Below, one piece after another: positions 35,304 to 56,280 of a stretch of DNA of 64,000 nucleotides. The DNA lies in contig JAOAET010000051.1 of assembly GCA_026416665.1 (NCBI GenBank), positions 139,800-203,799 of the forward strand, written 5' to 3'. Source of the stretch: Candidatus Omnitrophota bacterium. Its GTDB lineage: Bacteria; Omnitrophota; Gorgyraeia; Gygaellales; Profunditerraquicolaceae. Numbering within the stretch: position 1 is the first letter of the stretch; each line of letters opens with the position of its first letter. The notes under the pieces are model-generated. The model had not been told where the DNA came from. It saw nothing but the letters and a program-made list of their open reading frames with translations, and searched no databases. The translations under genes were made by a program, and so were the position numbers.

Positions 35304-35326
35304 ATCTTGTTTCTACTTTAATAAAT

Positions 35327-39883: not shown

Positions 39884-40248
39884 TTTATCGGTTGAATGTT
39901 GTGTTTACGAATTTTCGCACGCAAGGTATTACGATTAACACCCAGAATCTTTGCTGCCTGTAACTGATTACCAAATGTCCTGCACAAGACGTATTCAAAT
40001 AAATTTTTCTCAATGTACCCAATTATTGCTTTATACAGATTACCTTTTCTTTCCTGATAAAGTAGCTCTAACTTGTCTATTAGTTTTTCTTCAAAATTAA
40101 CTAGTGAACGTATTTCTTGCCCTTCTAAAATTTGGATGACATCTTCGTTTTTTTTTATACTGACTACAGCATTAGTCTTTACAGATAGAATAGTTGAAAT
40201 TAAATGGTATATACGCTTTTCCTTTTCTGTGCAAAAAACAGTAATCAT
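39868..40248 (-). CDS. small Fis-family HTH DNA-binding protein (putative nitrogen-cluster regulator)
   Basis: 126 aa. C-terminal Fis/NtrC-type HTH GNQLQAAKILGVNRNTLRAKIRKHNI. N-terminal 80 aa of unknown fold. First gene of the gltB-gltD unit. Confidence 0.6.
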   Translation of the reverse strand: MITVFCTEKEKRIYHLISTILSVKTNAVVSIKKNEDVIQILEGQEIRSLVNFEEKLIDKLELLYQERKGNLYKAIIGYIEKNLFEYVLCRTFGNQLQAAKILGVNRNTLRAKIRKHNIQPIKWKVL

Positions 40249-40265
40249 TTTTTTTGAACACTCTC

Positions 40266-40282
40266 TGCCTAATAATTAGGCA
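40266..40282. promoter_or_regulatory. perfect 17-bp palindrome TGCCTAATAATTAGGCA 18 nt upstream of the Fis-like gene start (candidate operator)
   Basis: Seen directly in sequence. T-run on the plus side only. Lies in the glnN/gltB intergenic region. Confidence 0.4.
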
Positions 40283-40332
40283 CAATTTTTTAAAAAACAA
40301 ACTCTTCATCACGCAACTACTTCATAAGAGTA

Positions 40333-42525
40333 TTATTTTACAAAGAGCATCTCACGGTATTTTGGTAAAGGCCAGAGATGGTCAGGCACAACTTTTTCTA
40401 ATTCATCAACATGTTTTCTGATATGTTCCATTGCTGGCTTTAGCTTATTAAAAAACACTGCAGCTCTCTTCTCTGGACTTAGTGATTCACTATCCTTTAC
40501 CAATTCTATCATCTCCTTAGTATTATGCCGTACGTAGTAGATTTTATTTACTATATCTAAAAGCTGTTCCTGGTGATCCTTAAGGGCTTTATTATCAATC
40601 TTCAAAGAACGCCCCGATGACAAAGACTTAAGTTTCTCGTAACTATTTAAAAGAAGATTCTCATACTCTAACGCTGCAGGAATAATTGAAGTATCAACCA
40701 TATCTTCTAAAGTATAGGCCTCTATCTCAAGTAACTTTGAATACATCTCAACCCAGATATGGTATCGTGCAGTCAATTCTTCTCTGGAAAACACTTTGTA
40801 TCGTTCAAAGAGAGCGATATTTTCTTCCTTTATTAGTGCCTTTAAAGCCTCAGCAGTAGAAACAATATTGGGTAAACCTCTTTTTTTCGCCTCCTGCTTC
40901 CACTGTTCAGAATAATTATTTCCTTCAAAACGAATTGGCTTGGTTTGTTTAACAATATCGGAAACTACACTAAGGACAGCTGAATTAAAATCCTGCTTTG
41001 AAGCCTTCTCTGCAATGCTGTTTGTCACATACTCTAGGGATTCTGCAATAATGGTATTTAGAAAAGTCACAGGTGTTGAGATGTTCTGTGATGACCCAAC
41101 TGCACGGAACTCGAATTTAGAACCCGTAAAAGCAAAAGGTGAAGTTCGGTTCCTATCTGTGGTATCTTTTGCAAACTGAGGTAGTCTGCCTATCCCAAGG
41201 TCAATAATATCCTTCCTTGAGACAGCTGCCTTCTTACCTTCCTCAATCATATCTAAAACTTTACTCAACTGTTCTCCCAGAAAAATACTAATAATTGCGG
41301 GTGGTGCTTCATTGGCACCAAGACGGTGCTCATTACCCGCGAAGGCGACACTGGCACGAATTACATCAGCATGTAAGTATACTGCCCTCAATACCGCAGA
41401 AAGAAAAGCTAAGAACTGTAAGTTCTCCTCAGGGGTTTCACCTGGATTAAGTAAGTTATTACCCTTATCATCTGCTAGTGACCAGTTAAGATGTTTTCCG
41501 CTACCGTTTATACCTGCAAATGGTTTTTCATGAAGCAAACACACTAAATCGTGTCTTAAAGCAATTTTGCGCATTAATTCCATTAAAAGCTGATTGTGGT
41601 CAGCTGCTAAGTTGGATTCTTCAAATACGGGAGCAAACTCATACTGATGAGGAGCAACTTCATTATGACGGGTCATAAGAGGAATCCCAACTTTATAAGC
41701 CTCCTGAGCCACTTCGTACATAAAGTTAAGCACTCGTTCTTTTATTGAGCCGAAATATTGGTCCTCTAATTGTTGCCCCTTAGGCGATGCTGCTCCCACT
41801 AATGTGCGACCAGTCAACAGTAGGTCAGGACGCAAAAGATAATATTTTCTATCAATTAGAAAATACTCTTGTTCAGGTCCACAAGTTGAAACAACTTTGC
41901 GAACATCATTATGCCCAAAAATTTTTAGTAAACTAATTGCTGCTTTACTTAAAGCCTCTTCAGAACGAAGAAGTGGCAATTTTTTATCCAGTGCCTCTCC
42001 ATGATAAGAAATAAAAATACTAGGTATACATAAGGTCTTACCGAGTTTGCTTTCTATAAGAAAGGCAGGGCTAGAAGGATCCCAAGCCGTATATCCCCGT
42101 GCTTCAAAGGTAGAACGAATACCTCCTGAAGGAAAACTTGAAGCATCAGGTTCACCTTGAATGAGCTTTGAACCAGAGAAACGTTCGATCACTTTGGCAT
42201 GACCAATTGGAGAAATAAAACTATCGTGCTTCTCAGCAGTTAACCCAGTCATCGGTTGGAACCAATGGGTATAATAAGTTGCCCCTTTGGCAATAGCCCA
42301 TTCCTTCATCGCAGCTGCTATCTCATCTGCTTCAGCACGACTAATCACCTTGCCCTCGGTTAACCAACGTTGAAAAGCAGCAAAAGTCCGCGCAGAAACC
42401 ATCTTCTCCATTACTTCTTGACTGAACGTATTTTCCCCAAAATAGCTACTTACCTTCTTATAATCTGTCTTTTCACCCAACATAACAGGTTTTACCTTTA
42501 ACAATACAGCCTCTCTTATTCTCAT
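40333..42525 (-). CDS. glnN: glutamine synthetase type III
   Basis: 730 aa. Length and N-terminus MRIREAVLLKVKPVMLGEKTDYKKV...FGENTF are typical of GSIII. Confidence 0.8.
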   Translation of the reverse strand: MRIREAVLLKVKPVMLGEKTDYKKVSSYFGENTFSQEVMEKMVSARTFAAFQRWLTEGKVISRAEADEIAAAMKEWAIAKGATYYTHWFQPMTGLTAEKHDSFISPIGHAKVIERFSGSKLIQGEPDASSFPSGGIRSTFEARGYTAWDPSSPAFLIESKLGKTLCIPSIFISYHGEALDKKLPLLRSEEALSKAAISLLKIFGHNDVRKVVSTCGPEQEYFLIDRKYYLLRPDLLLTGRTLVGAASPKGQQLEDQYFGSIKERVLNFMYEVAQEAYKVGIPLMTRHNEVAPHQYEFAPVFEESNLAADHNQLLMELMRKIALRHDLVCLLHEKPFAGINGSGKHLNWSLADDKGNNLLNPGETPEENLQFLAFLSAVLRAVYLHADVIRASVAFAGNEHRLGANEAPPAIISIFLGEQLSKVLDMIEEGKKAAVSRKDIIDLGIGRLPQFAKDTTDRNRTSPFAFTGSKFEFRAVGSSQNISTPVTFLNTIIAESLEYVTNSIAEKASKQDFNSAVLSVVSDIVKQTKPIRFEGNNYSEQWKQEAKKRGLPNIVSTAEALKALIKEENIALFERYKVFSREELTARYHIWVEMYSKLLEIEAYTLEDMVDTSIIPAALEYENLLLNSYEKLKSLSSGRSLKIDNKALKDHQEQLLDIVNKIYYVRHNTKEMIELVKDSESLSPEKRAAVFFNKLKPAMEHIRKHVDELEKVVPDHLWPLPKYREMLFVK

Positions 42526-42582: not shown

Positions 42583-42735
42583 CCTGTCCAACCTCGTTAG
42601 CCTAACACAACCGTGTGTAGCTACCATTAGTTACAAGTAAAAAAAGTTTTAAACTGGTAACTATTTTTTTCTAAAGAATTATTTATTGCTTGTTTTTTGT
42701 TGACTGTTTTAAACTTTCACGATAGATTAATTACG

Positions 42736-44052
42736 ATGCTTGTAGCTATCCGTAGATTGTATAATTCTGTAACCAAAAAAGAGCGTAAGATATTATTAGA
42801 GAACTTTTTTTCCCTAACTACCCTGCAAGGAATAAGCTACATTCTACCTGTTCTTGTTCTGCCATATCTTATCCGCACTATCGGTCCAGAGCGTTTTGGT
42901 CTTATTGCCTTTGCCCAATCATTGATGCAATACTTTATGATTATTACTGAGTATGGCTTTAATGTTACTGCCACCCGCCAAATCGCTCTTTGCCAGCAAA
43001 AACAACAACAAGTCTGTAATATTTTTTCTGGGGTAATGACTATAAAGATTATCCTCCTTTGTTTGTGTTTTTTTATTCTAATTCTGCTTATTAAGTTTGT
43101 TCCCCGTTTCACAAGAGACTGGCAAGTTTATTGTATCAGCTTCGGCACAGTGGTAGGCAACACTTTATTCCCTGTCTGGTTTTACCAAGGAAAAGAAAAT
43201 ATGCGTTATATTGCCGTTTTAAATATTATCTCAGGATTAGTTTTAGTTCTGGGTATTTTTATTTTTGTAAAAGACCCTTCTGGCTTTATTATTGCTGTTT
43301 TCTTGCAGTCAGCTATCTCTATAATTATAGGTTTATACGCACTTATCTTTGCATTTCGTAAATTTAATCTTTATTTTACTGTACAGACTTACCCGCAGTT
43401 AAAAAACCAGCTTAAAGAAGGCTGGCAAATCTTCTCTTCAATTATTGCAGTTAACGCCTATACTACTAGTCGTATTTTTATTCTTGGCTTTTTAACTAAC
43501 AACACAATTACTGGCTATTATGCAGTAGCTGAACGTATTGCATACTGCATCCAAACTTTTCCTCTGCAATCTTTTATCCAAGCCGTATTCCCACGCCTTA
43601 GCCACATATTTCAAAAAAATAAAAAACGTGCCTTTAGTCTTCTCTCCAAGATGCATACCACTACTATCCAGGGCTTTCTAATTAGTCTACCACTTATTTT
43701 TTTAATCTCAGGCTGGATGATTGAGTTAGTCACAGGTTACCGCTCTCAGATAGCTAATGCCAGTCTTCAAATTTTACTCTTAGCTGTGGCTGTTGTAGGC
43801 TTTAATTCCTTTCGTCTTCAATATCTTTTAATTGCCAATAGAACTCAAATCTATGCCCAAATACATTATACCATGGCTTTATTAGGAGTGTTTTTAATCT
43901 TTATCTGGACATATCTTTTTTCATATATTGGCACTGCCATTGCAACGGTGTTTATTGAAATAGGGATATTTTTGCTTACCGCTGAAGCCCTTAAGGAAGA
44001 GAGACAACAACAAGTTTACTCATCAAACACTAAAGCGTTATTTACTTTTTAG
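42736..44052 (+). CDS. polysaccharide/oligosaccharide flippase (Wzx-like, MOP superfamily)
   Basis: ~12 predicted TM helices, ~440 aa. The track ORF starts at a TTG at 42697. The ATG at 42736 is more likely but has no SD. A TTGACT-17-TAGATT motif sits at 42700-42728. Confidence 0.55.
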   Translation: MLVAIRRLYNSVTKKERKILLENFFSLTTLQGISYILPVLVLPYLIRTIGPERFGLIAFAQSLMQYFMIITEYGFNVTATRQIALCQQKQQQVCNIFSGVMTIKIILLCLCFFILILLIKFVPRFTRDWQVYCISFGTVVGNTLFPVWFYQGKENMRYIAVLNIISGLVLVLGIFIFVKDPSGFIIAVFLQSAISIIIGLYALIFAFRKFNLYFTVQTYPQLKNQLKEGWQIFSSIIAVNAYTTSRIFILGFLTNNTITGYYAVAERIAYCIQTFPLQSFIQAVFPRLSHIFQKNKKRAFSLLSKMHTTTIQGFLISLPLIFLISGWMIELVTGYRSQIANASLQILLLAVAVVGFNSFRLQYLLIANRTQIYAQIHYTMALLGVFLIFIWTYLFSYIGTAIATVFIEIGIFLLTAEALKEERQQQVYSSNTKALFTF

Positions 44053-45339
44053 TAAAATGTCTTCAGATCTTTTATCAGAAGCTAACAATGAGGAACAAGC
44101 TTCTTGATAAACCTTTAAAGCCTCAGGAAACGGTGAAAGGGTTCGTTCAAGGACATTCTGCAGAGCCGAAACAGCAATTCCGTAATTAGTAATAGGTACT
44201 TTTTGTGTCTTTGCTTTATGAATACGCCAAAGCATCTCACGCCGGGTAATCATACAACCGCCACAATGGATAATTAATTTGTAAACAGAAAGGTCATCAG
44301 GATAATCTCTTCCTGCACAGGTCTCAATAATTATATTTTTACCTGTTCTCATACGCAACCAACGTGGTATCTTTACTCTTCCTATATCATCTTCAATAGG
44401 ATGATGGCTACAAGACTCGGCAATAAGAACACGGTCATTATCTTCTAAAGCATGGATTTGGGCAGCACCACGGGCTAACTCTATTAAATCACCTTTTGCG
44501 CGAGCAAAAAGAATAGAAAAAGTTGTACACGCCACAGAAGCAGGTGTGTCACGCACCATCTGGTCTACTACTTGAGAATCACAAACCACCAGATTAGGAT
44601 ACTCTTTTAATTTCTTAAGTAAACTTATATATTCTACCTCGTTAACTACTACAGCTGCCTGATGATGGTCAAGTAAATCCCTAATGGTCTGAACCTGTGG
44701 CAAAATAATCCTTCCTTTTGGTGCTTCTTTATCAATAGGAACAATCAAAACCGCCAACCCCTGGGATGGAATGATGTCTCCTATAATAGGTGGTGGTCGA
44801 AAATAATCTTCAGGACATACTTCTAAAAGATGCTTTTTAAGAGGATTAACATAATTATCCCGATTCTTGTAATCAAGGCTTGATACCAAAATAAAACGTT
44901 TTACTTTTTCTTCCACTAACCGTAAAAAGTCCTCCGATGGTGGATTAACATCAATCTTATTAATTACTACAATAACTGGCAAAGAACGCTTTTTTGCCTC
45001 TTCCAGAACCTCGGACTCATATTCATTCCACTGATTTGCCTCTGTTACCAAAATAATCACATCTGCACGGTCAAATACCTTCTGCGTCTTTTTAATACGA
45101 AGTGACCCCAAAATAGAGCGGTCATCTAAACCTGCTGTATCTAAAAATACTACTGGACCAACAGGGAGAAGCTCCATTGTCTTTTCTACAACATCCGTAG
45201 TTGTCCCTGGCACAGGTGAAGTAATCGCTACATCTTGCCCAGCCACTAAATTAAGAAAACTTGACTTTCCTACGTTAGTTCTTCCAAATATTCCTATTTG
45301 TAATCTCAACGATTTAGGCGTCTTTTTCATTACACCCAC
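44038..45339 (-). CDS. hydF: [FeFe]-hydrogenase H-cluster maturation GTPase
   Basis: 433 aa. G1 GRTNVGKSS, G2 GTTTD. C-terminal Cys residues. Adjacent to hydE and hydG. Confidence 0.75.
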   Translation of the reverse strand: MGVMKKTPKSLRLQIGIFGRTNVGKSSFLNLVAGQDVAITSPVPGTTTDVVEKTMELLPVGPVVFLDTAGLDDRSILGSLRIKKTQKVFDRADVIILVTEANQWNEYESEVLEEAKKRSLPVIVVINKIDVNPPSEDFLRLVEEKVKRFILVSSLDYKNRDNYVNPLKKHLLEVCPEDYFRPPPIIGDIIPSQGLAVLIVPIDKEAPKGRIILPQVQTIRDLLDHHQAAVVVNEVEYISLLKKLKEYPNLVVCDSQVVDQMVRDTPASVACTTFSILFARAKGDLIELARGAAQIHALEDNDRVLIAESCSHHPIEDDIGRVKIPRWLRMRTGKNIIIETCAGRDYPDDLSVYKLIIHCGGCMITRREMLWRIHKAKTQKVPITNYGIAVSALQNVLERTLSPFPEALKVYQEACSSLLASDKRSEDILLKSK

Positions 45340-46283
45340 TCCTTGTTAGTTAAATTCAGTAAACTTTTTATCTGCGTGAAAGTAAGAGAATTTTTATGGT
45401 CATAAATCTTATAATTTTTACGGTAATTTGCCGGTGTGAAATTGCACATAATCACATTTGCCCCTGCCTTAAATGCCTCAATAACTGCTTTTTTTTGTCC
45501 AAGTGTAGCTAACGCAGTGGTTGCGGGAATATTTATTTTTCCAAGAAGAATACGCGTTAAAGCAATAACCTGATAAACCAGCAGAACATTTGGCGAAGGA
45601 TAATTGGCTAAAGGGGTCTGACTTTGCGCAAAAAAAGGTCCTACTGCCGCCATATCTACAGCTAAATTTTTCATAAGTAAGATGTCTTCAGCTAAATCTT
45701 CTGGTGTCTGGCCTGGTAAACCTATAATGTTTCCTGAACCTATCTGATAACCTATTTTTTTTAAAAAAAGCAGTGTCTTTATTCTCTGCTTTAATTTCTG
45801 TGAAGGATGTAAATATGCATAAAGCTTAGAATTAGCTGTTTCATGCTTAAGTAAGTATCTATCCGCTCCACTATCCCTTAAACAACGATATTCATCAAAA
45901 GACCTTTCTCCAATAGATAAGGTAATTGCAACCGCTGGAGCCCTTTTTTTTATCAGCTTAATAACTTTTGCCAAATCTTTAGCTTTTATACCAGGGTCGT
46001 CACCAGACTGAAGGATTACTGTTTTTATGCCTTTCTCTATAATTTTCTGTGCTGTTTTATCTATCTCCGACATACTCATTCTGTAACGTTTAAGTTTAGA
46101 ATTATCACGCCTTAAACCACAATAAAGACAGTTGCGAATACAGATATTAGAAAACTCAATAACACCTCTTAAATAAATCTCCCTGTCAAAATACATCCTA
46201 GTTAATTGTTCGGACTTGTGGATAAGTGATGAATATCGTTGTATATGAGTAAGACAATCTACTATTTCAGACTTGTTCATCAT
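45330..46283 (-). CDS. hydE: [FeFe]-hydrogenase maturase radical-SAM protein
   Basis: 317 aa. CX3CX2C motif CIRNCLYCGLRRDN. BioB-like fold. Operon context with hydG and hydF. Confidence 0.7.
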   Translation of the reverse strand: MMNKSEIVDCLTHIQRYSSLIHKSEQLTRMYFDREIYLRGVIEFSNICIRNCLYCGLRRDNSKLKRYRMSMSEIDKTAQKIIEKGIKTVILQSGDDPGIKAKDLAKVIKLIKKRAPAVAITLSIGERSFDEYRCLRDSGADRYLLKHETANSKLYAYLHPSQKLKQRIKTLLFLKKIGYQIGSGNIIGLPGQTPEDLAEDILLMKNLAVDMAAVGPFFAQSQTPLANYPSPNVLLVYQVIALTRILLGKINIPATTALATLGQKKAVIEAFKAGANVIMCNFTPANYRKNYKIYDHKNSLTFTQIKSLLNLTNKEWV

Positions 46284-46319: not shown

Positions 46320-47813
46320 TTAAAACCAGAGGTCACGTTCTCCTCTTTTAATTCTCTCTAAATATCCCAAAAATGCCTGATACAACTGCAAAGGAAAATC
46401 CTTTGGTCTTGTCCTAATTTCTTCTATTTCTCTAGCAATCAATGCCTCACCGATTTTTTTTGTTTCAAAACTTGCAAAATCTTCTAACCACTCCTGAAAG
46501 GTAAGCACTGCGTTTAACTTGCAGAAGCAACCTTCCTTACCACTACGCAAGAGATTCATAATGGTATCCCCTGTTCTTCCACAACGATACCCTGCAGTGC
46601 AAAAAGAGGTAATATAACCTAAATCTGCCAATTCCCTAATTACCTCATCCAGAGAACGACTATCTCCTAGGATAAACTGTTGTCGGAGTGGTTGCTGTTT
46701 AGTAAGACTCTGTGAATAGGAACCAACCCCTATTCGAGATGAGGCATCACGTTGAGTACACATTCCAATAACCGAACGAATAAATTCTGCTTTTTCACGA
46801 CAGGTGATAATAAGTCCTGCGTAAGGGATAGATAATCGCAAAACCGCAATAAGTTTTCTAAAGTCTTCATCCTTTACTCTATACGGTGGATTATTACAAA
46901 AAGGTGTATTAATCGCTGGTTCAATTCTCGGCACAGACACAGTGTGTGGCCCAACGCCAAAACACCTTTCTAAATCCCGTGCCTGAGCAAGCATACCCAA
47001 TACTTCATATCTCCAGTCATATAAACCAAACAGAGCCCCTATTGCCACATCATCAATTCCTGCTTCCATTGCCCGATGAAGCGAATAAAGCCTCCAGCGA
47101 TAATTTCCTTTAATAGTATCAGCAGGATGTAACTTTTCATAAGTTGATCTATGATATGTCTCTTGGAATACTTGATATGTCCCAATTCCTGCTTTTTTTA
47201 AAAGATATAAGTCCTGAATACTCATTGGTGCGGCATTAACATTTACTCTACGAATCTGCCCTATGCCGTTTCTTACTTTTATCTTAACACTATAAATTGT
47301 ACGCAGACTTTCACAAATATAGTTTATGTTGGTAAGTGGATGTTCTCCAAAAACCGCAATTACACGCTTATGACCTATGGTACCCGCTATTCTCTCTGTC
47401 TCTTGACGAATTTCTTCTTGGGTTAAAAACTTGCGTTGGATTTGGTGATTCTCTTTTCGGAAACCACAGTAAATACAGTTATTCACACAGAGATTAGAAA
47501 TATAAAGAGGGGCAAAGGTAACAATACGGTTATCGTAAACTTTTTTCTTAATTTCTTGGGCTGCTTCAAAAATTCTCTGCCAGATATCTTGCTCTGATAC
47601 CGCCATAAGAGAAGCTGCTTCTTCTAACTCCAAGGTTTGTATACTTCTTGCCTTCTCAATAATTTGTGAAATATACCCTCTGTCAGGTGGTTTTAGATTA
47701 GCTAAAATTTCTTCAATATTTGCCTTGGCTACAAAATCTTTTCCTTGGACGAGATATTTATTAACCTGTTCAGGTATGATAATTTTTTCTAAACTTATTT
47801 CTGTGTTAATCAT
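46320..47813 (-). CDS. hydG: [FeFe]-hydrogenase maturase radical-SAM tyrosine lyase
   Basis: 497 aa. CVNNCIYCGF radical-SAM motif. ThiH-like core. C-terminal Cys cluster CTAGYRCGRTGD. Confidence 0.75.
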   Translation of the reverse strand: MINTEISLEKIIIPEQVNKYLVQGKDFVAKANIEEILANLKPPDRGYISQIIEKARSIQTLELEEAASLMAVSEQDIWQRIFEAAQEIKKKVYDNRIVTFAPLYISNLCVNNCIYCGFRKENHQIQRKFLTQEEIRQETERIAGTIGHKRVIAVFGEHPLTNINYICESLRTIYSVKIKVRNGIGQIRRVNVNAAPMSIQDLYLLKKAGIGTYQVFQETYHRSTYEKLHPADTIKGNYRWRLYSLHRAMEAGIDDVAIGALFGLYDWRYEVLGMLAQARDLERCFGVGPHTVSVPRIEPAINTPFCNNPPYRVKDEDFRKLIAVLRLSIPYAGLIITCREKAEFIRSVIGMCTQRDASSRIGVGSYSQSLTKQQPLRQQFILGDSRSLDEVIRELADLGYITSFCTAGYRCGRTGDTIMNLLRSGKEGCFCKLNAVLTFQEWLEDFASFETKKIGEALIAREIEEIRTRPKDFPLQLYQAFLGYLERIKRGERDLWF

Positions 47814-47831
47814 AACTACTCCTTAAATATC

Positions 47832-48083
47832 TTACATTTTCGCAGGTGTAGATTTCACAGTTACTTCCTTACACATGCCTAATTTCCCGGTTAAAGCACC
47901 TATTTCATCATTTGTCCCATCAACAATTAAGGTAATAATATTTACCCTACGAGCTTGGTAAGGAAAACCCATCCGTGCAACAATAATATCTCCGAATTCC
48001 GTTAAAATACTATTTATCTTAGGTGCTGCCTCCTTTCGCTTTCTGACCACAATAAGCACTGCCGCAATGTGTCTTTCTGACAT
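47832..48083 (-). CDS. small ACT/NikR-C-like protein, TM1266-type putative iron-only hydrogenase system regulator
   Basis: 83 aa. Sits immediately upstream of hydG-hydE-hydF in one operon. Confidence 0.5.
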   Translation of the reverse strand: MSERHIAAVLIVVRKRKEAAPKINSILTEFGDIIVARMGFPYQARRVNIITLIVDGTNDEIGALTGKLGMCKEVTVKSTPAKM

Positions 48084-48093
48084 AATCTCCTCC

Positions 48094-48133
48094 TTTAAAA
48101 CAAAAATACCCTCGCCTGAAGTTACAACGAGGG
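48094..48133 (-). terminator. terminator-like hairpin plus T-run abutting the SD of the hyd-maturation operon (candidate attenuator)
   Basis: Minus strand: CCCTCG, 13-nt loop, CGAGGG, then TATTTTTGTTTTAAAGGAGGAGATTATG. Confidence 0.5.
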
Positions 48134-48196
48134 TAAAACAATACTTCTTTTTTTCTTTTCCCCCTCGGCCTCAGAATCGGCTCCTTAACCTCAGGT

Positions 48197-48240
48197 TAAA
48201 AATATTATAGCATAAAAATTTTATTTATGAATAAAAAGTT
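48197..48240 (-). promoter_or_regulatory. candidate extended -10 promoter (TGcTATAAT) for the hyd-maturation leader
   Basis: Minus strand: TTATGCTATAATATTT (TATAAT = plus 48203-48208). The -35 is poorly defined. Confidence 0.35.
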
Positions 48241-48258
48241 TTCAAACTTCTTTCAGAG

Positions 48259-48621
48259 CTAATGGCTTCTGCCACGAATTTTGTAACCTTTCTTTCTTAG
48301 GGCATCGGTTTTTGCTTTAGAGCAGTCCATACATAAGAAGACTGGTACGGCATTGCGCCGGTCATAAGAAGGGGCATAAACAAGTCTCCATAGGCTTTCT
48401 TCTTTACCACAGGCATCACAGGTTCCTTTATCCTTAAATTGCCAGACTTCTATGGCATAACTGGTAAAAATAAACCGGTCAACCCAAAAGAAAATTACTC
48501 CACCAATAAGATTGGCAATAACCGTGGACCAAATGCCTGTTCCTAAATTTCTTACTACTAACCATAAAATCGGTGTGCTTAATTGCCAACGAACAAGATA
48601 AAGAATAAAACGCCTTACCAT
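48259..48621 (-). CDS. small membrane protein (GtrA-like 2-TM N-terminus) with a C-terminal CxxC...CxxC zinc ribbon
   Basis: 120 aa. Hydrophobic N-terminal 75 aa. CDACGKEE...CMDCSKAK. Confidence 0.4.
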   Translation of the reverse strand: MVRRFILYLVRWQLSTPILWLVVRNLGTGIWSTVIANLIGGVIFFWVDRFIFTSYAIEVWQFKDKGTCDACGKEESLWRLVYAPSYDRRNAVPVFLCMDCSKAKTDALRKKGYKIRGRSH

Positions 48622-48672
48622 CTTTTATTTCTCCTTTTTTTAAAAAAATATACTGTTCATTAAAAGTTAAAA

Positions 48673-49281
48673 TTATTGAATATTTATTTTTCTTGCCTTT
48701 AACAGATAAAGCTTTTTTTGATTTCTATAACAGAGAACCTGAAAACCTGTTTTTGCAAGCATATTATAAAGTTTTCTTTTGGAAGGAAGTCTATCATTAA
48801 AAACAGGCCCACCTGCACGTTTATGAATACTGGCAATCTTTCTTGAAGAGGCAGTGTGGCTTATAATTAAATATCCCCCCACCTTCAACACCCGCCCCGC
48901 TTCTTTTAAAGCACTTAGTTTATCTTTAAAATGTGGAAAGCTTGAAAAATAAATTACTCGGTCAAAATAACCTGCCTTAAAAGGTAAATTCGCTGCGTCT
49001 GCAACAAAAAAGTTTTTCCGATAACGCTGGAATTTTCTTTTGGCATATTCAATCATACAAGAAGAAGCATCCACCGCTAATACCCTGCCTTTTTTGCCTA
49101 CTCTCTTTGTTAATATACCAAACATATTGCCTGTTCCACAACCAACCTCTAGGATTTTTTCACCTTTTCTAATACCGTATAAGCTACTGTGCCTTAAAAG
49201 CATATTAAGATAATCTTTGCTATTGTGTTTTATATCCCAACTATGGGCAAGCTTATTAAAAAAAACTATTTTTTTATACAT
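48673..49281 (-). CDS. class I SAM-dependent methyltransferase
   Basis: 202 aa. Motif I ILEVGCGTGNM. Confidence 0.65.
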   Translation of the reverse strand: MYKKIVFFNKLAHSWDIKHNSKDYLNMLLRHSSLYGIRKGEKILEVGCGTGNMFGILTKRVGKKGRVLAVDASSCMIEYAKRKFQRYRKNFFVADAANLPFKAGYFDRVIYFSSFPHFKDKLSALKEAGRVLKVGGYLIISHTASSRKIASIHKRAGGPVFNDRLPSKRKLYNMLAKTGFQVLCYRNQKKLYLLKARKINIQ

Positions 49282-50117
49282 TATATACTTTCCTTTAAAA
49301 GAAATATCTTTTTAAGAAAACCTTTCTTAGGAGAGAAAATTAATGATAGCATAAAAATAATACTGGAGACCAGAATGATCATTGCACCTGTAGGTAAATT
49401 CCAATGATATGATAATAGAAGTCCCAATAGACAAGAGCCAACACCTATAACAACTGCTACAATGCAAACTCTGGAAAAGGTATAACAAAGTTGAAGTGCG
49501 CTTGCTGCCGGATTAATCAGTAGGCTAAATATCAAAAGCCCACCGATACTACTCATATTTGCAGTAATTACCAGGGAACATAAAATAATAATTGTATAAT
49601 AAATAAACCGTTCTGGAATTCCCAAAGAATTTGCAACCTGTCGATTAAAAAGAACAACTTTTATTTGTTTAAATAAAAATACTAAAAAAAGCAGAACCAA
49701 TAAGCTTGTTATAGCCATAATCAGAAGTTGTGTCCGGTTAATTGTTAAGATACTACCCCACATTAACGAAAGCGCCTCTGTCTTTGCGCCAGGAATATTT
49801 GCCAAAAATAAAAAGGCCAAACCCAGCATAAGAGAAAAGAGAATCCCTACACTAATCTCCGGCCTAAAATTTGCTTTATCTGCCAGGGGCCCAATTATAA
49901 AAGTAACGATTGCACAAAATAAATAAGCCATCCATAAGGGATTAATCCCTAACACTATACCACATATTGCCCCAGCAAATGCAGCGTGAGAAATAGCTAC
50001 CCCCAGAAAAGGGATCTGTAACGTCACCACTAATACACCGACCAAAGAACAGCCTATACCTGCCAAAATACTTCCCCAAAAGGCATAGCGAAGAAATGAA
50101 TATTCAAGTAACTGCAT
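49281..50117 (-). CDS. znuB: metal (Zn/Mn) ABC transporter permease, ABC-3 family
   Basis: 278 aa, 8-9 TM helices. ZnuB/MntB-like. Confidence 0.65.
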   Translation of the reverse strand: MQLLEYSFLRYAFWGSILAGIGCSLVGVLVVTLQIPFLGVAISHAAFAGAICGIVLGINPLWMAYLFCAIVTFIIGPLADKANFRPEISVGILFSLMLGLAFLFLANIPGAKTEALSLMWGSILTINRTQLLIMAITSLLVLLFLVFLFKQIKVVLFNRQVANSLGIPERFIYYTIIILCSLVITANMSSIGGLLIFSLLINPAASALQLCYTFSRVCIVAVVIGVGSCLLGLLLSYHWNLPTGAMIILVSSIIFMLSLIFSPKKGFLKKIFLLKESI

Positions 50118-50914
50118 TAAGATTTCCCTTCTACAAAAATGGCGCCCCTTTGCTTATAAGGGACTACTTTTACTGGGCAGTCATAAAGATTAGACAAAAC
50201 ATCCTCTCTTAACGCCACTTCCTTAGACGCAGATAAAATAACTCTTCCTTTTTTCATCAGAACTATTTGATTACAACTTTTTGGTAAAAGTGTAAGGTCA
50301 TGGCTAACCAACAAAATGGTAAGCTCTTTTTCGCTTTTTATTTTATCTATTAGCTCAAGAAGCATTGCCTGTGCAGGAAGGTCAAGATTAGCTAGCGGCT
50401 CATCAAGTAATAGTAGTTTTGGTTGTTGGGCAAGAACTCTGGCCAAGGCAACTTTTCGCTGTTCACCTGCTGACAGATAACCGAATGGTCTATTTAACAA
50501 ATGCCTAATACCTACAAGCTCTGCTGCTTCTTCTATTGTCTCTTTGTCTTTTTTAGAAAAATTATGAAATAAAGAACTATGTGCCAGACGACCAAAACTA
50601 ATTACATCCCAAACTAAGAGGGGTATTTGGGGGTCAATACCAACATTTTGTGGGACATAACCCGTATGTTTTCGAATAAACTTTGGTGAATCTCTTAAAT
50701 CTCTCCCCAACACCTTTACCAAACCCGTTCGGATTTGGCAAAGGCCAAGGATACTTGCCAAAAGAGTAGTTTTACCTGCGCCATTAGGACCTGCTATGGT
50801 TACACAGGAATTTGCTAATACACAAAGACTTACCTGATGTAACGCTTGATGGTAACCATATTCTACATTAACACTATCCAGTACAATAACTGCTTCAGAA
50901 GTAGAATAATTCAT
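50117..50914 (-). CDS. znuC: metal (Zn/Mn) ABC transporter ATP-binding protein
   Basis: 265 aa. GPNGAGKTT and LSAGEQRKVALARVL. Confidence 0.7.
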   Translation of the reverse strand: MNYSTSEAVIVLDSVNVEYGYHQALHQVSLCVLANSCVTIAGPNGAGKTTLLASILGLCQIRTGLVKVLGRDLRDSPKFIRKHTGYVPQNVGIDPQIPLLVWDVISFGRLAHSSLFHNFSKKDKETIEEAAELVGIRHLLNRPFGYLSAGEQRKVALARVLAQQPKLLLLDEPLANLDLPAQAMLLELIDKIKSEKELTILLVSHDLTLLPKSCNQIVLMKKGRVILSASKEVALREDVLSNLYDCPVKVVPYKQRGAIFVEGKS

Positions 50915-51765
50915 TTTTGAATTGCTTCAATAAGACTTTGAATATTCTCTTCCAAGGTTCCTAAATATGAAAATTTACCATTTACTTCTTTGGGGAAATT
51001 ACTTAATACGACACGGGGAATACCTACGGAAGAGGAGATGGGATTGACACTGTTAGCTGAGCTCTGAAGATTATCTACTACTATTTTTACTTTTTCTTTT
51101 TTAGCCAAATCTATTAATTGCATCAGTGTCTTAGGAGTAATTTCTTCTGGTCTACCATAACTTGCAACTATTTTGAAACCCAACCAAGCTAACAAATCTT
51201 TCTGCATGTTGTTAACAATTACTTTTGATTCTTGAGGATAATTTTTTCGTAATTTATTCAATAATTGTAGACTTCTGTGTTTAATCAAAGAAATATATCG
51301 CTTACTATTATTTTTAAAAAAATCTGCTTTCTCTGGCCAGTAAGCTGACAAAACTTGGCTGATTTTCTCTGTTGCCTTCAAATACACTTCGGGGACCATC
51401 CAGCTACCTTCTACATCAAGCGCAATAACAGTAGTTAATGCCTTATCTTTTCCAGTTAACGAACGTAGCTTTTCTAATATTGTCTTTTCCTCGAATCTAT
51501 GCCCAATAATCAATGTTGCCTGCTGTAACAATTGTGCCTCTTTTACAGTAAGGTCAAAATGCCCGGGACAACTCTGTGGTGGGATAAGGCAGTGTAGTTT
51601 GACTGAATCGGTTGCAATTTCCTGGACAATACTAGCAATATCCGAAGTAGTTACAACTATGATAGGTTTTGCTTCAACATAACTAATAGATAGACAATTA
51701 GAAACACAAAACAATAGAAATGACTTTTCTATAAAATGCCTTATCTTATCTAACAAATTTACCAT
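50911..51765 (-). CDS. znuA: metal ABC transporter substrate-binding protein (TroA/ZnuA family)
   Basis: 284 aa. IVVTTSDIASIVQEIATDSVKLHCLIPPQSCPGHFD parallels the ZnuA VVTT...SLVQ...LVPP...H.YE pattern. Confidence 0.6.
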   Translation of the reverse strand: MVNLLDKIRHFIEKSFLLFCVSNCLSISYVEAKPIIVVTTSDIASIVQEIATDSVKLHCLIPPQSCPGHFDLTVKEAQLLQQATLIIGHRFEEKTILEKLRSLTGKDKALTTVIALDVEGSWMVPEVYLKATEKISQVLSAYWPEKADFFKNNSKRYISLIKHRSLQLLNKLRKNYPQESKVIVNNMQKDLLAWLGFKIVASYGRPEEITPKTLMQLIDLAKKEKVKIVVDNLQSSANSVNPISSSVGIPRVVLSNFPKEVNGKFSYLGTLEENIQSLIEAIQK

Positions 51766-53558
51766 TTAAAAGTTAATCCTATTTCATAATTACGTTTAGG
51801 TTGCACAAAAACACCTGAGGCACCTGGTATATCAGCATAAATCTTATGTTCTACGTTTAACACATTATTTACCGCCCCAAAAACTTCCCAACCTTCTTTT
51901 ACATTATACACAGTTTTTAGATTAAGTAAGAAAAAATTTGGTATTGCTTGCTGCTTATTATCTGCTGCATAGTATTCATCCACTATTTGTGCCATTACAC
52001 TATTTCTCCAACGCCCTACAGAATTTAAAATAGAGACATCTACTTCATGCTTGGGTCTGCCTTGAGTAAATCTACCTGTGTGTAGCCAGCTGTAGGAAAC
52101 ACGGCCTTGCCAATGCTTGTTAAAGGCATAATTTAAGGAAGATTCGTGTCCTCTAAAACGCACTTTATCTAAGTTTTGAAATTTACCCGCACTTATGCGG
52201 ATAAAATCCCGTGCATGCATAATGAAATAAGTAGTCTCTAAACTAATTTTTTCATTAAAAATATGATTAATACCTACCTCGTAATTCCAAACAGTCTCTT
52301 CTTTTAAATCCGGATTTGCCTGGGTGGCAAATCGCAATTCATTTAATTGTGGGGCACGGAACCCGCGATTAACTACTGCCCGCAGGCTTGTTGTGTCCAA
52401 AACGCGTAGCACTGCACCTGTTTGAGTAGCGATTAATGAACCTGCATATTCATCCTCATTATAGCGTACACCTGCAGTTAAAATTAATCTATCCAAAAAT
52501 CTCTGCTCATCCTGTAGAAAAAAACCATATTCGTCTTTTTCGTATTTACCCAAGGTTACACCTGGTCCATTTAATACTTTACCTCCTTGTTGACGAAACT
52601 CGCCCCCAATAAGCAGTTGGTTTGTTTCTATCAATTTCACCCCATAGTGCATTATGACACCATTGGTATAATCTTTAGAATGGGTTTTGTCAGAAAATCT
52701 ATGTGTCCCAAAGTCCCGGTATAGTTTGCCCAAAATACTTAAATTCTCACCAATTTCACCCTCTAAACTTAAATCATACGAGCCCCGTTCATAATTATTC
52801 CAAGAATAAGCAGGTGAAGGGGCGGGTTCACGTTTGAATCCATCATATGCACGGCTGTTGAATATTAATTTAAGCTCATCATTTAACTGTTGGGCAAGGC
52901 GCAAAGTTAGATTTTTTCTATTAAAATCAGAATTAGGCAGATGCCCACGTGTTTTTAGGGTATCAAAGGTAACAAAATAATCAAATCTATCGTATTTGCC
53001 ACCTTGTTTAAGCAGAACCTCCCAGAGGTCATATGAACCATAAAGAGTTTTTAATTCTCCTTGAAACTCTTTGGTAGGTTTTTCAGTTATAATATTTAAA
53101 ACACCTCCTAATGCATCAGAACCATAAAGCACAGAGGCAGGACCACGAACTACTTCTATACGTTGAACATTATCCAAGGGGAAAGCATCGGTTATCGTGC
53201 AACCATACAGACCCATTTTTTCAGGCTTACCATCTACTAAAACCATAATACGCCTACCACGGCTACCGTGTCCTCGGATAACTACATCTGCCCTGCCAAA
53301 ACCGGTGGTTTTATGTACAAAAACACCTGGTAACCCAGAAAGTAAATCTGTAGCAGAATGGCTCGTTGTTGCCTCTATATCCTTTTTGGTGATAACACTT
53401 ACTGCCAAAGAAGAATCTGATACTGATAGAGAATAACGTGAAGGCGTAACCACAATTTTACCTAAAGAATATTCATCTTCCTGTTGTTGGGCAAAGACCG
53501 TAATACCACTAAATAAAACCACACCCGATAAAGTTACAAGTAACCACTTGCTTTTCAT
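51759..53558 (-). CDS. TonB-dependent outer-membrane receptor
   Basis: 599 aa. Signal peptide. TonB box GKIVVTPSR. Plug plus beta-barrel. C-terminal aromatic residue (..TFKW). Confidence 0.8.
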   Translation of the reverse strand: MKSKWLLVTLSGVVLFSGITVFAQQQEDEYSLGKIVVTPSRYSLSVSDSSLAVSVITKKDIEATTSHSATDLLSGLPGVFVHKTTGFGRADVVIRGHGSRGRRIMVLVDGKPEKMGLYGCTITDAFPLDNVQRIEVVRGPASVLYGSDALGGVLNIITEKPTKEFQGELKTLYGSYDLWEVLLKQGGKYDRFDYFVTFDTLKTRGHLPNSDFNRKNLTLRLAQQLNDELKLIFNSRAYDGFKREPAPSPAYSWNNYERGSYDLSLEGEIGENLSILGKLYRDFGTHRFSDKTHSKDYTNGVIMHYGVKLIETNQLLIGGEFRQQGGKVLNGPGVTLGKYEKDEYGFFLQDEQRFLDRLILTAGVRYNEDEYAGSLIATQTGAVLRVLDTTSLRAVVNRGFRAPQLNELRFATQANPDLKEETVWNYEVGINHIFNEKISLETTYFIMHARDFIRISAGKFQNLDKVRFRGHESSLNYAFNKHWQGRVSYSWLHTGRFTQGRPKHEVDVSILNSVGRWRNSVMAQIVDEYYAADNKQQAIPNFFLLNLKTVYNVKEGWEVFGAVNNVLNVEHKIYADIPGASGVFVQPKRNYEIGLTFKW

Positions 53559-54437: not shown

Positions 54438-56237
54438 TTATATTTTTACAGTTTTGTTTAATAAAAAAGGGGTATCTAGTTCATTTCTTTCATGGTAATG
54501 TGTATGTAACAACTGATGAGAAAGTTCAGAAAGAGGTTTACCTAAAAACTCTTGATAAATCTGTTTTATCGCAGGATTCTCATGGGATTTACGAACAGAT
54601 TTACTGCGGTCTTCCTCGTAAATTGCCTCCATTCGTTTTTGTCTTGTCTGTGTATCTGTAGGAATTGGTTGTCCACCACCACCCAAACACCCACCAGGGC
54701 AGGTCATTATTTCAATAAAAGTATAAGGAGATTTACCATTCTGAACCTCCTCTAATAAAACACGGGCATTACTTAAGGAATTCGCTACGGCTACTTTAAG
54801 TAACAATCCATTTAAATCTAACTCGGCAGTTTTTATTCCCTCAAGGCCTCTTACTTGTTTAAATTCAACATCACTAAGTGGCTGATTAGTTAAAACTTCG
54901 TAGGCGGTACGTAGAGCTGCTTCCATTACACCACCTGTTGCTCCAAATACAACCGCCGCACCTGTAGAAATACCAAGAGGCTCGTCAAATTCTTCATCTG
55001 CTAAACGAGTAAAATCAATACCTGCTTCTTTCATCATGCGAGCAGCCTCTCGCGTAGTTAAAACGAAATCCACATCTACAAAATGTTCTTTTTCATCTAA
55101 ATTCATAACATTTTTCCAATACCTGAAGGCTGCATCCATCTCAGGCCTATGTGCCTCAAATTTTTTGGCAGTACAGGGCATTATTGATACAACTACTATT
55201 TTACGTGGGTCAATACCTATTTTTTTTGCATAGTAAGTTTTTGCCACTGCTCCAAACATCTGTTGTGGCGATTTACAACTGGAAATGTGCTTAAGCACTT
55301 TAGGATAGAAATGCTCGGCAAACTTAATCCAACCAGGAGAACAAGAAGTAATCAGCGGTAAAGGTCCTTTATTTTTAATCCGATGAATTAATTCGTGTGC
55401 TTCTTCCATAATAGTAAGGTCAGCAGAAAATTGGGTATCAAATACTTTTTTAAACCCAAGCCTACGTAAAGCAGCAACCATCTTACCCGTTATACGACTT
55501 CCTGCAGCCAACCCAAATTCTTCACCAATAGAAGCCCTTACTGCCGGAGCTGTTTCTACCACTACAAATTTTTGGTTATCTGACAATGCCTTCCAGACCC
55601 CTTGAATATGATAATTCTCAACTAAAGCGCCCGTCGGACAAACCAAAAGACATTGTCCACAATTAACACACGAAGAATTTCCTAACCCTCTATCCATAAA
55701 AGTGCTGATACGCGTGCGTTTACCCCGGTTTATCGCCTCTATAGCCCGCACAGATTGAATTTTTTCACAAACTGCAGTGCATCTACGACAGAGAATACAT
55801 TTATTAGGGTCACGAACAATAGCCGAAGAACTTTGGTCTATGGGTAAAGATATGCTGGTTTCTTTAGAAAACCGCACTCTTTGGATTCCCATCTCAAAAG
55901 CAAGACGGCGCAGTTGGCAATTCTGGTTACGTTCACAGACAAAACAGTCTTGAGGATGGCTTGCCAAAAGTAGTTCTAAGTTTAAAAGGCGCCCTTTACG
56001 TACACGCTCGGTGTTAGTTCGAATTACCATTCCGTCTGTAACTTCTGTGACGCAAGCACGCATTAGCGTCTTTGCTCCTTCCACCTCTACAAGGCAAATA
56101 GAACAAGAGGCTTCTTCGCTTACTCCGTCTAAATAACAGAGATTAGGAATAATAATACCTAACTCTTCACAAGCCTTCAAAATAGTAGTGGCTTTAGCAA
56201 TCTGGTATTCTTGTCCATCAATAGTGATTTTGGGCAT
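54438..56237 (-). CDS. hydA: [FeFe]-hydrogenase catalytic subunit HydA (multimeric/bifurcating type) with a variant L1 motif
   Basis: 599 aa. N-terminal [2Fe-2S] ferredoxin-like domain, then [4Fe-4S] Cys clusters. H-cluster motifs L2 MPCTAKKFE and L3 EIMTCPGGCLGGGGQP are canonical. L1 reads TSCSPGW (from DNA, plus 55336-55350) instead of TSCCPxW. Confidence 0.8.
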   Translation of the reverse strand: MPKITIDGQEYQIAKATTILKACEELGIIIPNLCYLDGVSEEASCSICLVEVEGAKTLMRACVTEVTDGMVIRTNTERVRKGRLLNLELLLASHPQDCFVCERNQNCQLRRLAFEMGIQRVRFSKETSISLPIDQSSSAIVRDPNKCILCRRCTAVCEKIQSVRAIEAINRGKRTRISTFMDRGLGNSSCVNCGQCLLVCPTGALVENYHIQGVWKALSDNQKFVVVETAPAVRASIGEEFGLAAGSRITGKMVAALRRLGFKKVFDTQFSADLTIMEEAHELIHRIKNKGPLPLITSCSPGWIKFAEHFYPKVLKHISSCKSPQQMFGAVAKTYYAKKIGIDPRKIVVVSIMPCTAKKFEAHRPEMDAAFRYWKNVMNLDEKEHFVDVDFVLTTREAARMMKEAGIDFTRLADEEFDEPLGISTGAAVVFGATGGVMEAALRTAYEVLTNQPLSDVEFKQVRGLEGIKTAELDLNGLLLKVAVANSLSNARVLLEEVQNGKSPYTFIEIMTCPGGCLGGGGQPIPTDTQTRQKRMEAIYEEDRSKSVRKSHENPAIKQIYQEFLGKPLSELSHQLLHTHYHERNELDTPFLLNKTVKI

Positions 56238-56280
56238 AGTAGACTCCTTGCAAACTCTTGTTAAACGAAAGAAAAATGAT

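Follow-up and report, generated by a model that had tools for sequence, protein, structure and literature searches.

A conserved leader hairpin upstream of the TM1266-hydG-hydE-hydF operon of an Omnitrophota bacterium and its predicted role in transcription attenuation

The stretch of DNA analysed here, referred to below as the window, comprises 64,000 nucleotides of contig JAOAET010000051.1 from a Candidatus Omnitrophota bacterium (assembly GCA_026416665.1), and all coordinates are those of the window unless a comparison locus is named. It carries an operon for the maturation of [FeFe]-hydrogenase that is preceded by a leader of about 115 nt, in which a reading made from the sequence alone had suspected conditional termination. 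To our knowledge, the control of the synthesis of the maturases HydE, HydF and HydG in bacteria is essentially unknown, and we know of no function for the TM1266 family, for which a crystal structure has existed since 2006. The sequence-only reading had labelled the operon TM1266-like-hydG-hydE-hydF; this assignment is confirmed by the fact that all four products exceed the NCBIfam equivalog cut-offs. The leader and the genes of the operon are located on the minus strand:

47832-48083, minus strand: TM1266-family gene, 83 aa, first gene of the operon (TIGR03959, PF21699)
46320-47813, minus strand: hydG, H-cluster maturase (TIGR03955, above cut-off)
45330-46283, minus strand: hydE, H-cluster maturase (TIGR03956, above cut-off)
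44038-45339, minus strand: hydF, H-cluster maturase (TIGR03918, above cut-off)

In the direction of transcription, the leader contains a promoter, a hairpin, a predicted antiterminator, a terminator and the translation start of the first gene:

48204-48231, minus strand: sigma-70-type promoter with the -35 box TTCATA (48231-48226), a 16-nt spacer and the extended -10 box TGcTATAAT (48212-48204)
48162-48195, minus strand: sensor hairpin ('hyd leader motif'), recovered by covariance-model match, minimum free energy (MFE) fold, covariation and RNAalifold
48156-48167, minus strand: 5' strand of the predicted antiterminator, CGAGGGGGAAAA, overlapping the 3' strands of helices P2 and P1 of the sensor hairpin
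48128-48138, minus strand: 3' strand of the predicted antiterminator, UUUUACCCUCG, which doubles as the 5' arm of the terminator
48097-48135, minus strand: intrinsic terminator, consisting of the hairpin UACCCUCGUUGUAACUUCAGGCGAGGGUA (48135-48107) and the U-tract UUUUUGUUUU (48106-48097)
48081-48096, minus strand: Shine-Dalgarno (SD) sequence AAAGGAGG (48096-48089) and ATG (48083-48081) of the TM1266-like gene

The extended -10 promoter proposed in the sequence-only reading is indeed present and scores 10 of 12 in a consensus scan, with TG. Its distance from the start codon had been put at about 110 nt; the -10 box ends about 120 nt before the ATG. Transcription is predicted to start near 48197, about 7 nt past the TGcTATAAT box and 0-2 nt before the hairpin. 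The CCCTCG/CGAGGG hairpin with its U-tract, followed by the SD sequence, was likewise found as described (48135-48089). Folded in isolation, the terminator arms UACCCUCG...CGAGGGUA (48135-48107) reach -11.7 kcal/mol (z = -3.4 against shuffled sequences), and seven continuous base pairs together with two pairs past a single-nucleotide bulge provide the nine-pair stem of an intrinsic terminator. A consensus terminator scan with a loop limit of 8 nt missed this element; taken as one continuous stem, it has a loop of 13 nt.

The sensor hairpin comprises 34 nt (5'-CCU-GA-GGUU-AA-GGAG-CCGA-UUCU-GA-GGCC-GA-GGG-3', 48195-48162), and the MFE fold of the window leader reproduces it with -12.1 kcal/mol. 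Three short helices are interrupted by two near-identical, purine-rich 2x2 internal loops, with CUGA facing RAGG on the opposite strand:

48195-48193 with 48164-48162, minus strand: helix P1, CCU with GGG
48192-48191 opposite 48166-48165, minus strand: outer internal loop, GA opposite GA
48190-48187 with 48170-48167, minus strand: helix P2, GGUU with GGCC
48186-48185 opposite 48172-48171, minus strand: inner internal loop, AA opposite GA
48184-48181 with 48176-48173, minus strand: helix P3, GGAG with UUCU
48180-48177, minus strand: terminal loop, CCGA

The duplicated CUGAGG segments to which the sequence-only reading had drawn attention both exist (48194-48189 and 48174-48169). What it missed is that they constitute opposite paired strands of one hairpin, which covaries and is common to many phyla. 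Viewed as a single sequence, the fold of the whole leader is unremarkable (z = -1.2 against shuffles), and we therefore tested its significance by comparison with other genomes.

This comparison relied on 160 loci with TM1266 homologues from genomes and metagenomes and on seven closer Omnitrophota relatives, hence on 167 loci in addition to the window. On inspection of the upstream regions, TM1266 genes of widely differing bacteria are seen to be preceded by two occurrences of the pattern YCUGMG...RAGG. A covariance model, based at first on 30 sequences and then rebuilt from 71 (model R2), yielded 125 matches at E<1 in about 0.8 Mb (the 167 loci plus the window), E-values being rough owing to a shortened calibration; all but one of these matches (124/125) lie on the gene strand, and most are positioned less than 200 nt upstream of the TM1266 start. 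The sole match in the window is the leader hairpin (48156-48199, minus strand, 37.6-38 bits, E of about 1e-6). The only match opposite the TM1266 strand (L008, 158-200, minus strand, 27.5 bits) is found just downstream of an open reading frame (ORF) with a twin-arginine-like signal peptide, and the gene that it precedes lies beyond the end of that locus.

RNA folding and covariation, two of the checks proposed along with the sequence-only reading, both bear out the hairpin. Among the 86 matches with E<0.01, canonical pairs occupy 88.3% of the cells, and the covariation score amounts to 0.519 as compared with 0.178 +/- 0.012 for column shuffles, none of which reached 0.519 in 500 trials; in a slid-partner control, the score was at most 0.23. 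Double-sided changes are present in 8 of the 11 pairs, and the four P2 pairs make use of every Watson-Crick type. As these pair counts rest on alignments fitted to the model, we used RNAalifold on an unfitted MAFFT alignment as an independent check, and the same three helices were obtained.

The resulting consensus reads CCU GA NNNN AA GG nn-(3-5 nt loop)-nn CU GA NNNN RA GGG, followed by a purine-rich tail. The terminal stem is of variable length (L003, L004, L007 and L009 carry insertions), and the spacer helix P2 nearly always measures 4 bp. The hairpin has a pseudo-dyad, with a helix end of C-G, C-G and U.G and then a G.A/A.R 2x2 loop in each half. P1 and P3 are ambiguous in register, as a shift by one nucleotide is possible, giving either a closing U.G pair with a 2x2 loop or a closing U-A pair with a smaller loop; the register given here is favored because columns 5/72 (CG 64, UA 13, GC 2) and 18/59 (AU 37, GC 21) covary. 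Two local CCU..AGG hairpins with kissing loops, or an ANTAR-like pair of hairpins, were considered and rejected: the outermost P1 pair covaries, RNAalifold returns a nested fold, and the terminal stem varies.

At E<0.01, the motif is present in about 80 of the 167 TM1266 loci, and it is carried by at least nine bacterial phyla, with matches in Omnitrophota, Spirochaetota, Desulfobacterota/Syntrophales, Bacillota (including Moorella thermoacetica, Clostridium lundense and Desulfotomaculum copahuensis), Lentisphaerota, Caldisericota, Atribacterota, Auribacterota and Riflebacteria. Many loci that had scored motif-negative turned out to possess a second subtype, type B (CUGA-N2-3-CAU-GA-GGG-UUCGU-CCC-RA-AUG-N-GA-AGG), which shares the architecture of the form described above (type A) and is missed by the type A model. 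Type B has an asymmetric outer loop and a conserved terminal loop, UUCGU/UUAGU; compensatory changes occur in five of its eight pairs, and carriers are, e.g., Sporomusa ovata, Propionispira and Acidaminococcaceae:

L048, L055, L060, L066, L068, L077, L078, L120, L121, L122, L129, L144, L150, L154, L158, L159: type B hairpin, about 100-290 nt upstream of TM1266

On the opposite strand of L122, about 230 nt upstream of the type B leader, an unrelated TPP riboswitch (2019-2123, minus strand, 73 bits) was found.

Copies of the motif also occur inside the operons and at other maturation genes. In L027, L098, L104 and L025 it is positioned between TM1266 and hydG; the region upstream of TM1266 is AT-rich and motif-free in L098 and L104, and the sequence of L025 begins 25 nt before the gene. 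In L028, the motif precedes a hydG gene that has no TM1266 gene ahead of it, L091 has it upstream of the aspartase gene of the cluster, and in L047, L012, L137 and others it lies about 1.1 kb downstream of TM1266, within the operon. In several close relatives (L161, L166, L167 and the P0008 contig), an aspartate ammonia-lyase-like gene (Lyase_1) directly follows hydG, at the position where the window has hydE; in L161 and L166, it is directly followed by hydF. The window operon contains no aspartase gene. Several loci carry paired copies of the motif within a single leader or intergenic region:

L056 322-406, L022 2254-2352, L109 346-439, L104 2786-2903, L012 3670-3769: tandem copies, 5-17 nt apart (model matches)
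L098 2782-2991: two copies, about 125 nt apart, the second of them weak (E 0.69)

Within the roughly 0.8 Mb searched, the motif is confined to hyd maturation genes, and a model scan found no copy at hydA of the window (54438-56237). Because of this latter finding, the regulon appears to be composed of the maturation genes only. The hydA gene belongs to a region (54438-59424, minus strand) that encodes HydA, an [FeFe]-hydrogenase large subunit with a fused small-subunit domain, and a 1047-aa NuoF-like/GltD-like fusion protein, again with no leader motif before these genes; this combination suggests an NAD(P)H-linked hydrogenase.

The sequence-only reading had further proposed that an upstream segment of the leader could pair with the 5' arm of the terminator. 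In the window, CGAGGGGGAAAA (48167-48156) pairs with UUUUACCCUCG (48138-48128) at -10.6 kcal/mol, and as positions 48128-48138 also serve as the terminator 5' arm, antiterminator and terminator are mutually exclusive. This complementarity is locus-specific: in 38 leaders, the duplex between the 3' half of the motif (with 4 flanking nt) and the terminator 5' arm has a mean of -12.1 kcal/mol within its own locus versus -10.0 kcal/mol with the arms of other loci (permutation p of 5e-5 to 2e-4). The effect is gone with reversed sequences of the same composition (p = 0.22), and the 5' half of the motif gives a weaker signal (p = 0.013). The alternative pairing is realised with differing sequences, namely CGAGGG/CCCUCG in the window, GGCUAG/CUAGYC in L081, L166 and L169, and GGGGGUAA/UUACCCCC in L161. 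Of the about 62 motif copies that precede TM1266, 41 are followed by an intrinsic terminator under a strict test, and visual inspection reveals further ones.

The order of -10 box, hairpin, terminator, SD sequence and TM1266 is kept in the seven Omnitrophota relatives. In all but one of them, 7-9 nt separate the end of the -10 box from the CCU of the hairpin (relatives with this spacing were recorded as L161, L162, L165, L166, L169, L170 and L081), and the transcript would therefore start essentially at P1. In contrast to this constant layout, the upstream gene varies; it encodes a phosphorylase, LemA, HydA (L165), an acetate kinase, CSD or ACR_tran. The combination of a terminator with an upstream segment predicted to exclude it, found in the window and kept in the relatives, is that of a terminator/antiterminator attenuator, and the conserved layout thus lends support to the proposed conditional termination.

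These observations bear directly on the possibility that there is no regulatory leader at all, the hairpin and U-tract simply terminating the upstream 120-aa gene and both the CUGAGG duplication and the CGAGGG complementarity being due to chance. No separate terminator is present between the stop codon of this ORF (48259) and the promoter, and the unremarkable single-sequence fold would fit as well. However, promoter, hairpin and terminator are retained next to unrelated upstream genes, and because the layout is conserved while the upstream gene differs, a role as a mere terminator of that gene, which had been named as a potential refutation of the sequence-only reading, is ruled out. Moreover, a near-consensus extended -10 promoter precedes the terminator, and neither the strand bias of the matches nor the strong covariation would be expected by chance. 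We consequently give this explanation next to no credence. The ORF itself (48259-48621, minus strand), which immediately precedes the promoter, matched nothing in Pfam or NCBIfam; it encodes a hydrophobic N-terminal half and a C-terminal CxxC...CxxC arrangement resembling a zinc ribbon, and it is not conserved beside the hyd leader in relatives.

A terminator is not the only type of expression platform, and other lineages do without one. In L132 and L124, no terminator is present and the SD sequence and AUG reside inside the hairpin, whereas in L057 and L117, which also have no terminator, the 3' strand of the hairpin is itself the SD sequence. As all three platform types give the same logic, we infer that the stabilised hairpin corresponds to the OFF state in each of them.

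The data lend themselves to the following regulatory model; all functional statements in it are predictions from sequence. Transcription would start about 7 nt past the TGcTATAAT box and at once yield the 34-nt hairpin. The 3' strand of this hairpin, together with the G/A-rich tail, could alternatively pair with the 5' arm of the terminator and thereby form the antiterminator; since these nucleotides are shared, the hairpin would function as an anti-antiterminator. When a trans-acting factor stabilises the hairpin, the terminator would form and the operon would be OFF. When the hairpin is left unstabilised, the antiterminator would compete successfully enough for RNA polymerase to enter TM1266-hydG-hydE-hydF. 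As long as the 3' arm of the terminator has not been transcribed, the window hairpin (-12.1 kcal/mol) and the antiterminator (-10.6 kcal/mol, plus residual P3) are about equal in stability, and a few kcal/mol of hairpin stabilisation could decide the outcome. The factor would be the first product of the operon, the TM1266-like protein, binding the dyad-symmetric RNA as a dimer and probably loaded with a signal of H-cluster assembly, so that negative feedback of the PyrR/HutP/TRAP type would ensue. We hold the cis-element and its attenuation logic to be very probable, and regard the complete statement, with TM1266 as the factor, as having slightly less than an even chance.

One might object that the hairpin is bound by some other factor, such as a general RNA-binding protein, or that it is a constitutive element (a ribosome or RNase determinant, or a 5'-end stabiliser) rather than a switch linked to TM1266 or to a metabolite. 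Its position at the extreme 5' end of the predicted transcript would suit this explanation, as stem-loops at the 5' terminus can shield mRNAs from degradation; the RAGG elements are SD-like, and the minimum-energy state already contains both the hairpin and the terminator. A stabiliser, however, needs neither a conserved pair of purine loops, nor a fixed 4-bp spacer, nor complementarity to the terminator arm, nor copies within the operon. The restriction of the motif to hyd maturation genes, to the exclusion of hydA in the window, also speaks against it, and no other conserved non-enzymatic gene accompanies the motif. We judge this explanation improbable. Two further candidates were dismissed: a CsrA site or generic SD-like GGA site leaves the invariant CUGA and the P2 covariation unexplained, and leader-peptide attenuation finds no AUG in the leader before the start codon.

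Several lines of evidence point to the TM1266-like protein as the factor. The window protein clearly belongs to the family, scoring 101.6 bits with TIGR03959 (cut-off 60.8) and 101.9 bits with PF21699 (cut-off 27), and its gene adjoins hydG-hydE-hydF; the annotation of the family goes no further than putative regulator. TM1266 is the sole conserved non-enzymatic product of these operons. Its AF2 model (pLDDT 95) has a beta-alpha-beta-beta-alpha-beta fold whose nearest solved structures are 2NZC (TM 0.90) and then the C-terminal nickel-binding domain of NikR and ACT domains; as modelled, it is a sensor fold with neither a DNA-binding nor any other output domain. The dyad symmetry of the RNA, with its fixed 4-bp spacer, suits a homodimeric protein. 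The motif is found not only ahead of TM1266 but also a further time within the operon, preceding hydG or the aspartase gene (L091, L028, L047, L012, L137 and others), and the RNA subtype tracks the TM1266 subfamily: residues I39/G64-T65-T66/G70/T73/L88 accompany type A, and Y39/A64-P65-N66/S70/S73/Y88 accompany type B.

A number of points weigh against attenuation by TM1266. The state with hairpin and terminator (about -24 kcal/mol) is more stable than the antiterminator state (about -12 kcal/mol), so that equilibrium favours termination and read-through must rely on kinetic competition during transcription. The nearest folds of TM1266 are small-molecule or metal sensor domains that usually act via protein-protein contacts or fused domains. 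RNA binding is recorded for no protein of the TM1266 family, and the Protein Data Bank holds only 2NZC, deposited as a hypothetical protein, with no RNA complex. The family is not markedly basic (median pI 8.2, median net charge +1; the window protein has a pI of 9.8). No conserved residues separate motif-positive from motif-negative TM1266 proteins, many of the negatives being type B, and in the vicinity of some TM1266 genes (Thermotogota, Caldatribacterium) no motif was detectable. As leader and gene are adjacent, the match between RNA subtype and protein subfamily could reflect co-inheritance, and the association of RNA and protein is partly built in because all loci were chosen for containing TM1266. 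Finally, platforms of both transcriptional and translational type, tandem arrangement and occurrence in many phyla are typical of riboswitches as well.

This last point leads to the proposal that the hairpin is the aptamer of an orphan riboswitch that binds one small molecule or ion per internal loop, the ligand being tied to H-cluster biosynthesis, e.g., as a by-product or intermediate of HydG or HydE; its binding would cause termination or SD occlusion, and TM1266 would merely be another regulated gene. Small rod-like riboswitches that bind their ligand in internal loops provide a precedent, namely the xanthine/NMT1, THF-II, NAD+-I and nhaA-I/DUF1646 motifs, the latter reported as Li+/Na+ sensors. 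Across at least nine phyla, very strong conservation is seen at about 17 nt in the two internal loops and the pairs that close them while the helices covary, platforms of the terminator type and of the SD/AUG-sequestering type both occur, and the adjacent copies in L056, L022, L109, L104 and L012 recall tandem aptamers, a known riboswitch arrangement. The motif is also found before hydG and the aspartase gene with no TM1266 gene immediately downstream; conversely, TM1266 genes that have no detectable motif suggest that the main role of the protein need not be RNA binding. On the other hand, the hairpin is short and rod-like, it lacks pseudoknots, junctions and obvious tertiary contacts, and its two identical, dyad-related loops suit a homodimeric protein. 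In addition, the ligand of an OFF switch would have to report that maturation is sufficient or in excess, and no free metabolite that would obviously do so is known; Fe2+, SAM, tyrosine and cysteine should turn the operon ON rather than OFF. Several copies of one riboswitch in a single operon would also be unusual. We therefore view an orphan riboswitch as a possibility to be taken seriously, albeit on the improbable side. Slightly less probable still is the narrower proposal that the hairpin represents a new class of riboswitches sensing a small molecule peculiar to H-cluster biosynthesis (such as an intermediate or by-product of HydG or HydE chemistry). If the latter were true, it would be the first RNA sensor dedicated to the assembly of an organometallic cofactor, and it would offer a handle for finding free intermediates of [FeFe]-hydrogenase maturation in vivo.

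An RNA switch that extends over at least nine phyla, and that is present in cultured acetogens such as Moorella thermoacetica and Sporomusa ovata, would offer a testable entry into both maturase control and the function of TM1266. If TM1266 is the factor, a protein with an ACT/NikR-C fold would represent a new kind of RNA-binding attenuation factor; if the hairpin is a riboswitch instead, it would be an orphan reporting on a metabolite of H-cluster assembly. In practical terms, the motif marks hyd maturation operons in metagenomes and is worth considering when hyd operons are expressed heterologously for hydrogen production.

The wider surroundings of the operon contain further gene groups. 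Between the hydrogenase genes and the maturation operon, a metal-uptake cassette (49281-53558, minus strand; TonB-dependent receptor, ZnuA-like binding protein, ABC ATPase and ABC-3 permease) and a class I methyltransferase gene (48673-49281, minus strand; sub-threshold match to the DVU_1556 family) are located. On the other side, glutamate synthase (large subunit of 1518 aa, together with a GltD-like subunit) and a type III glutamine synthetase of 730 aa are encoded in a nitrogen-assimilation block (33864-42525, minus strand). The sole gene between this block and hydF is a flippase-like polysaccharide-biosynthesis gene in the opposite orientation (42697-44052, plus strand).

How does the hyd leader relate to known RNA families and attenuation systems? 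We compared it with the 4227 models of Rfam 15, which include all curated riboswitch classes and protein-binding leaders, using the gathering threshold of each family as the criterion. The whole window gave no match at this threshold, and none was obtained in the leaders of 20 homologous loci. At E<=10, the best hits in the region 47700-48700 were L10_leader (RF00557; 26.8 bits, below its threshold of 44) and preQ1-II (22.6 bits, below 47), whereas the leaders of L082 and L068 returned only noise. Both hits were rejected, being sub-threshold, carried by the terminator and SD sequence, and not recurring in homologues. L10_leader does resemble the hyd leader in being a leader with a terminator, and the alignment shares CCGAGG, the terminator stem and the U-tract; the match is, however, carried by the terminator, and the downstream gene here is not rplJ. 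Literature searches on a hydG/hydEFG riboswitch or attenuator and on TM1266 function found no description, the supplementary tables of a 224-motif paper being outside their scope. Hence, both Rfam and the literature agree with the sequence-only reading, which knew of no described riboswitch or attenuator for hydEFG.

Two structural motifs invite comparison on account of their repeats and purine pairs. ANTAR dual hairpins are two tandem short hairpins with hexaloops bearing A1 and G4, the second of which overlaps a terminator, and their binding leads to antitermination. In the hyd leader, by contrast, the repeats are nested in one hairpin (columns 10-13/64-67 and 5-7/70-72 covary), and the predicted logic is termination. 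Kink-turns, the binding sites of L7Ae/YbxF, combine a three-nucleotide bulge with tandem sheared G.A pairs between a canonical and a non-canonical stem. The internal loops of type A are instead symmetric 2x2 loops with no 3-nt bulge, although tandem G.A geometry is possible within them.

Among protein-mediated systems, the PyrR-controlled pyr operon of Bacillus subtilis and its relatives offers close parallels. There, the regulator is encoded by the first gene of the operon, as the candidate TM1266 would be here, and a small conserved hairpin acts as an anti-antiterminator whose PyrR-bound form frees a downstream intrinsic terminator. PyrR sites are found in the 5' leader and between cistrons (three attenuators in the B. 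subtilis pyr operon), and translational variants exist in other lineages. In contrast, the hyd leader has no sequence or structure similarity to the PyrR binding loop, with no RF00515 match at E<=10, and its downstream genes are hyd maturases; its RNA is dyad-symmetric with two G.A-type internal loops, and the candidate protein, whose RNA binding is putative, has a NikR-C/ACT fold rather than that of a phosphoribosyltransferase.

HutP (hut) and TRAP (trp) are small oligomeric, effector-activated proteins that use repeated short purine-rich elements of the nascent leader to choose between terminator and antiterminator, as is proposed here. The gene order of L027, L098, L104 and L025, with the regulator gene followed by the motif(s) and terminator and then hydG, mirrors that of hutP-hutH. 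HutP, however, binds single-stranded UAG repeats and promotes antitermination, and TRAP binds 11 (G/U)AG repeats around an 11-mer ring, whereas in the hyd leader the repeats pair with one another to form a covarying hairpin whose stabilisation is predicted to cause termination. Taken together, the order of the genes, the multiplicity of sites, the dyad symmetry of the RNA and a sensor fold that lacks an output domain provide circumstantial evidence for protein-mediated attenuation of the PyrR/HutP/TRAP type.

Small rod-like riboswitches (xanthine/NMT1, THF-II/folE, NAD+-I/nadA and guanidine-II/mini-ykkC) share with the hyd leader the format of hairpin aptamers of about 35-55 nt with conserved loops; some have two similar sub-sites, terminators or SD overlaps follow, and tandems occur. 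However, none of these Rfam families matches; the exclusive association with H-cluster maturase genes is new, and a perfect pseudo-dyad with two identical CUGA/RAGG loops at a distance of 4 bp is foreign to these classes. With its conserved loops, covarying stems and two kinds of platform, the architecture is consistent with a riboswitch class. By this comparison, the hyd leader motif belongs to no described family; in function, it would most resemble an anti-antiterminator sensor of the PyrR or riboswitch type.

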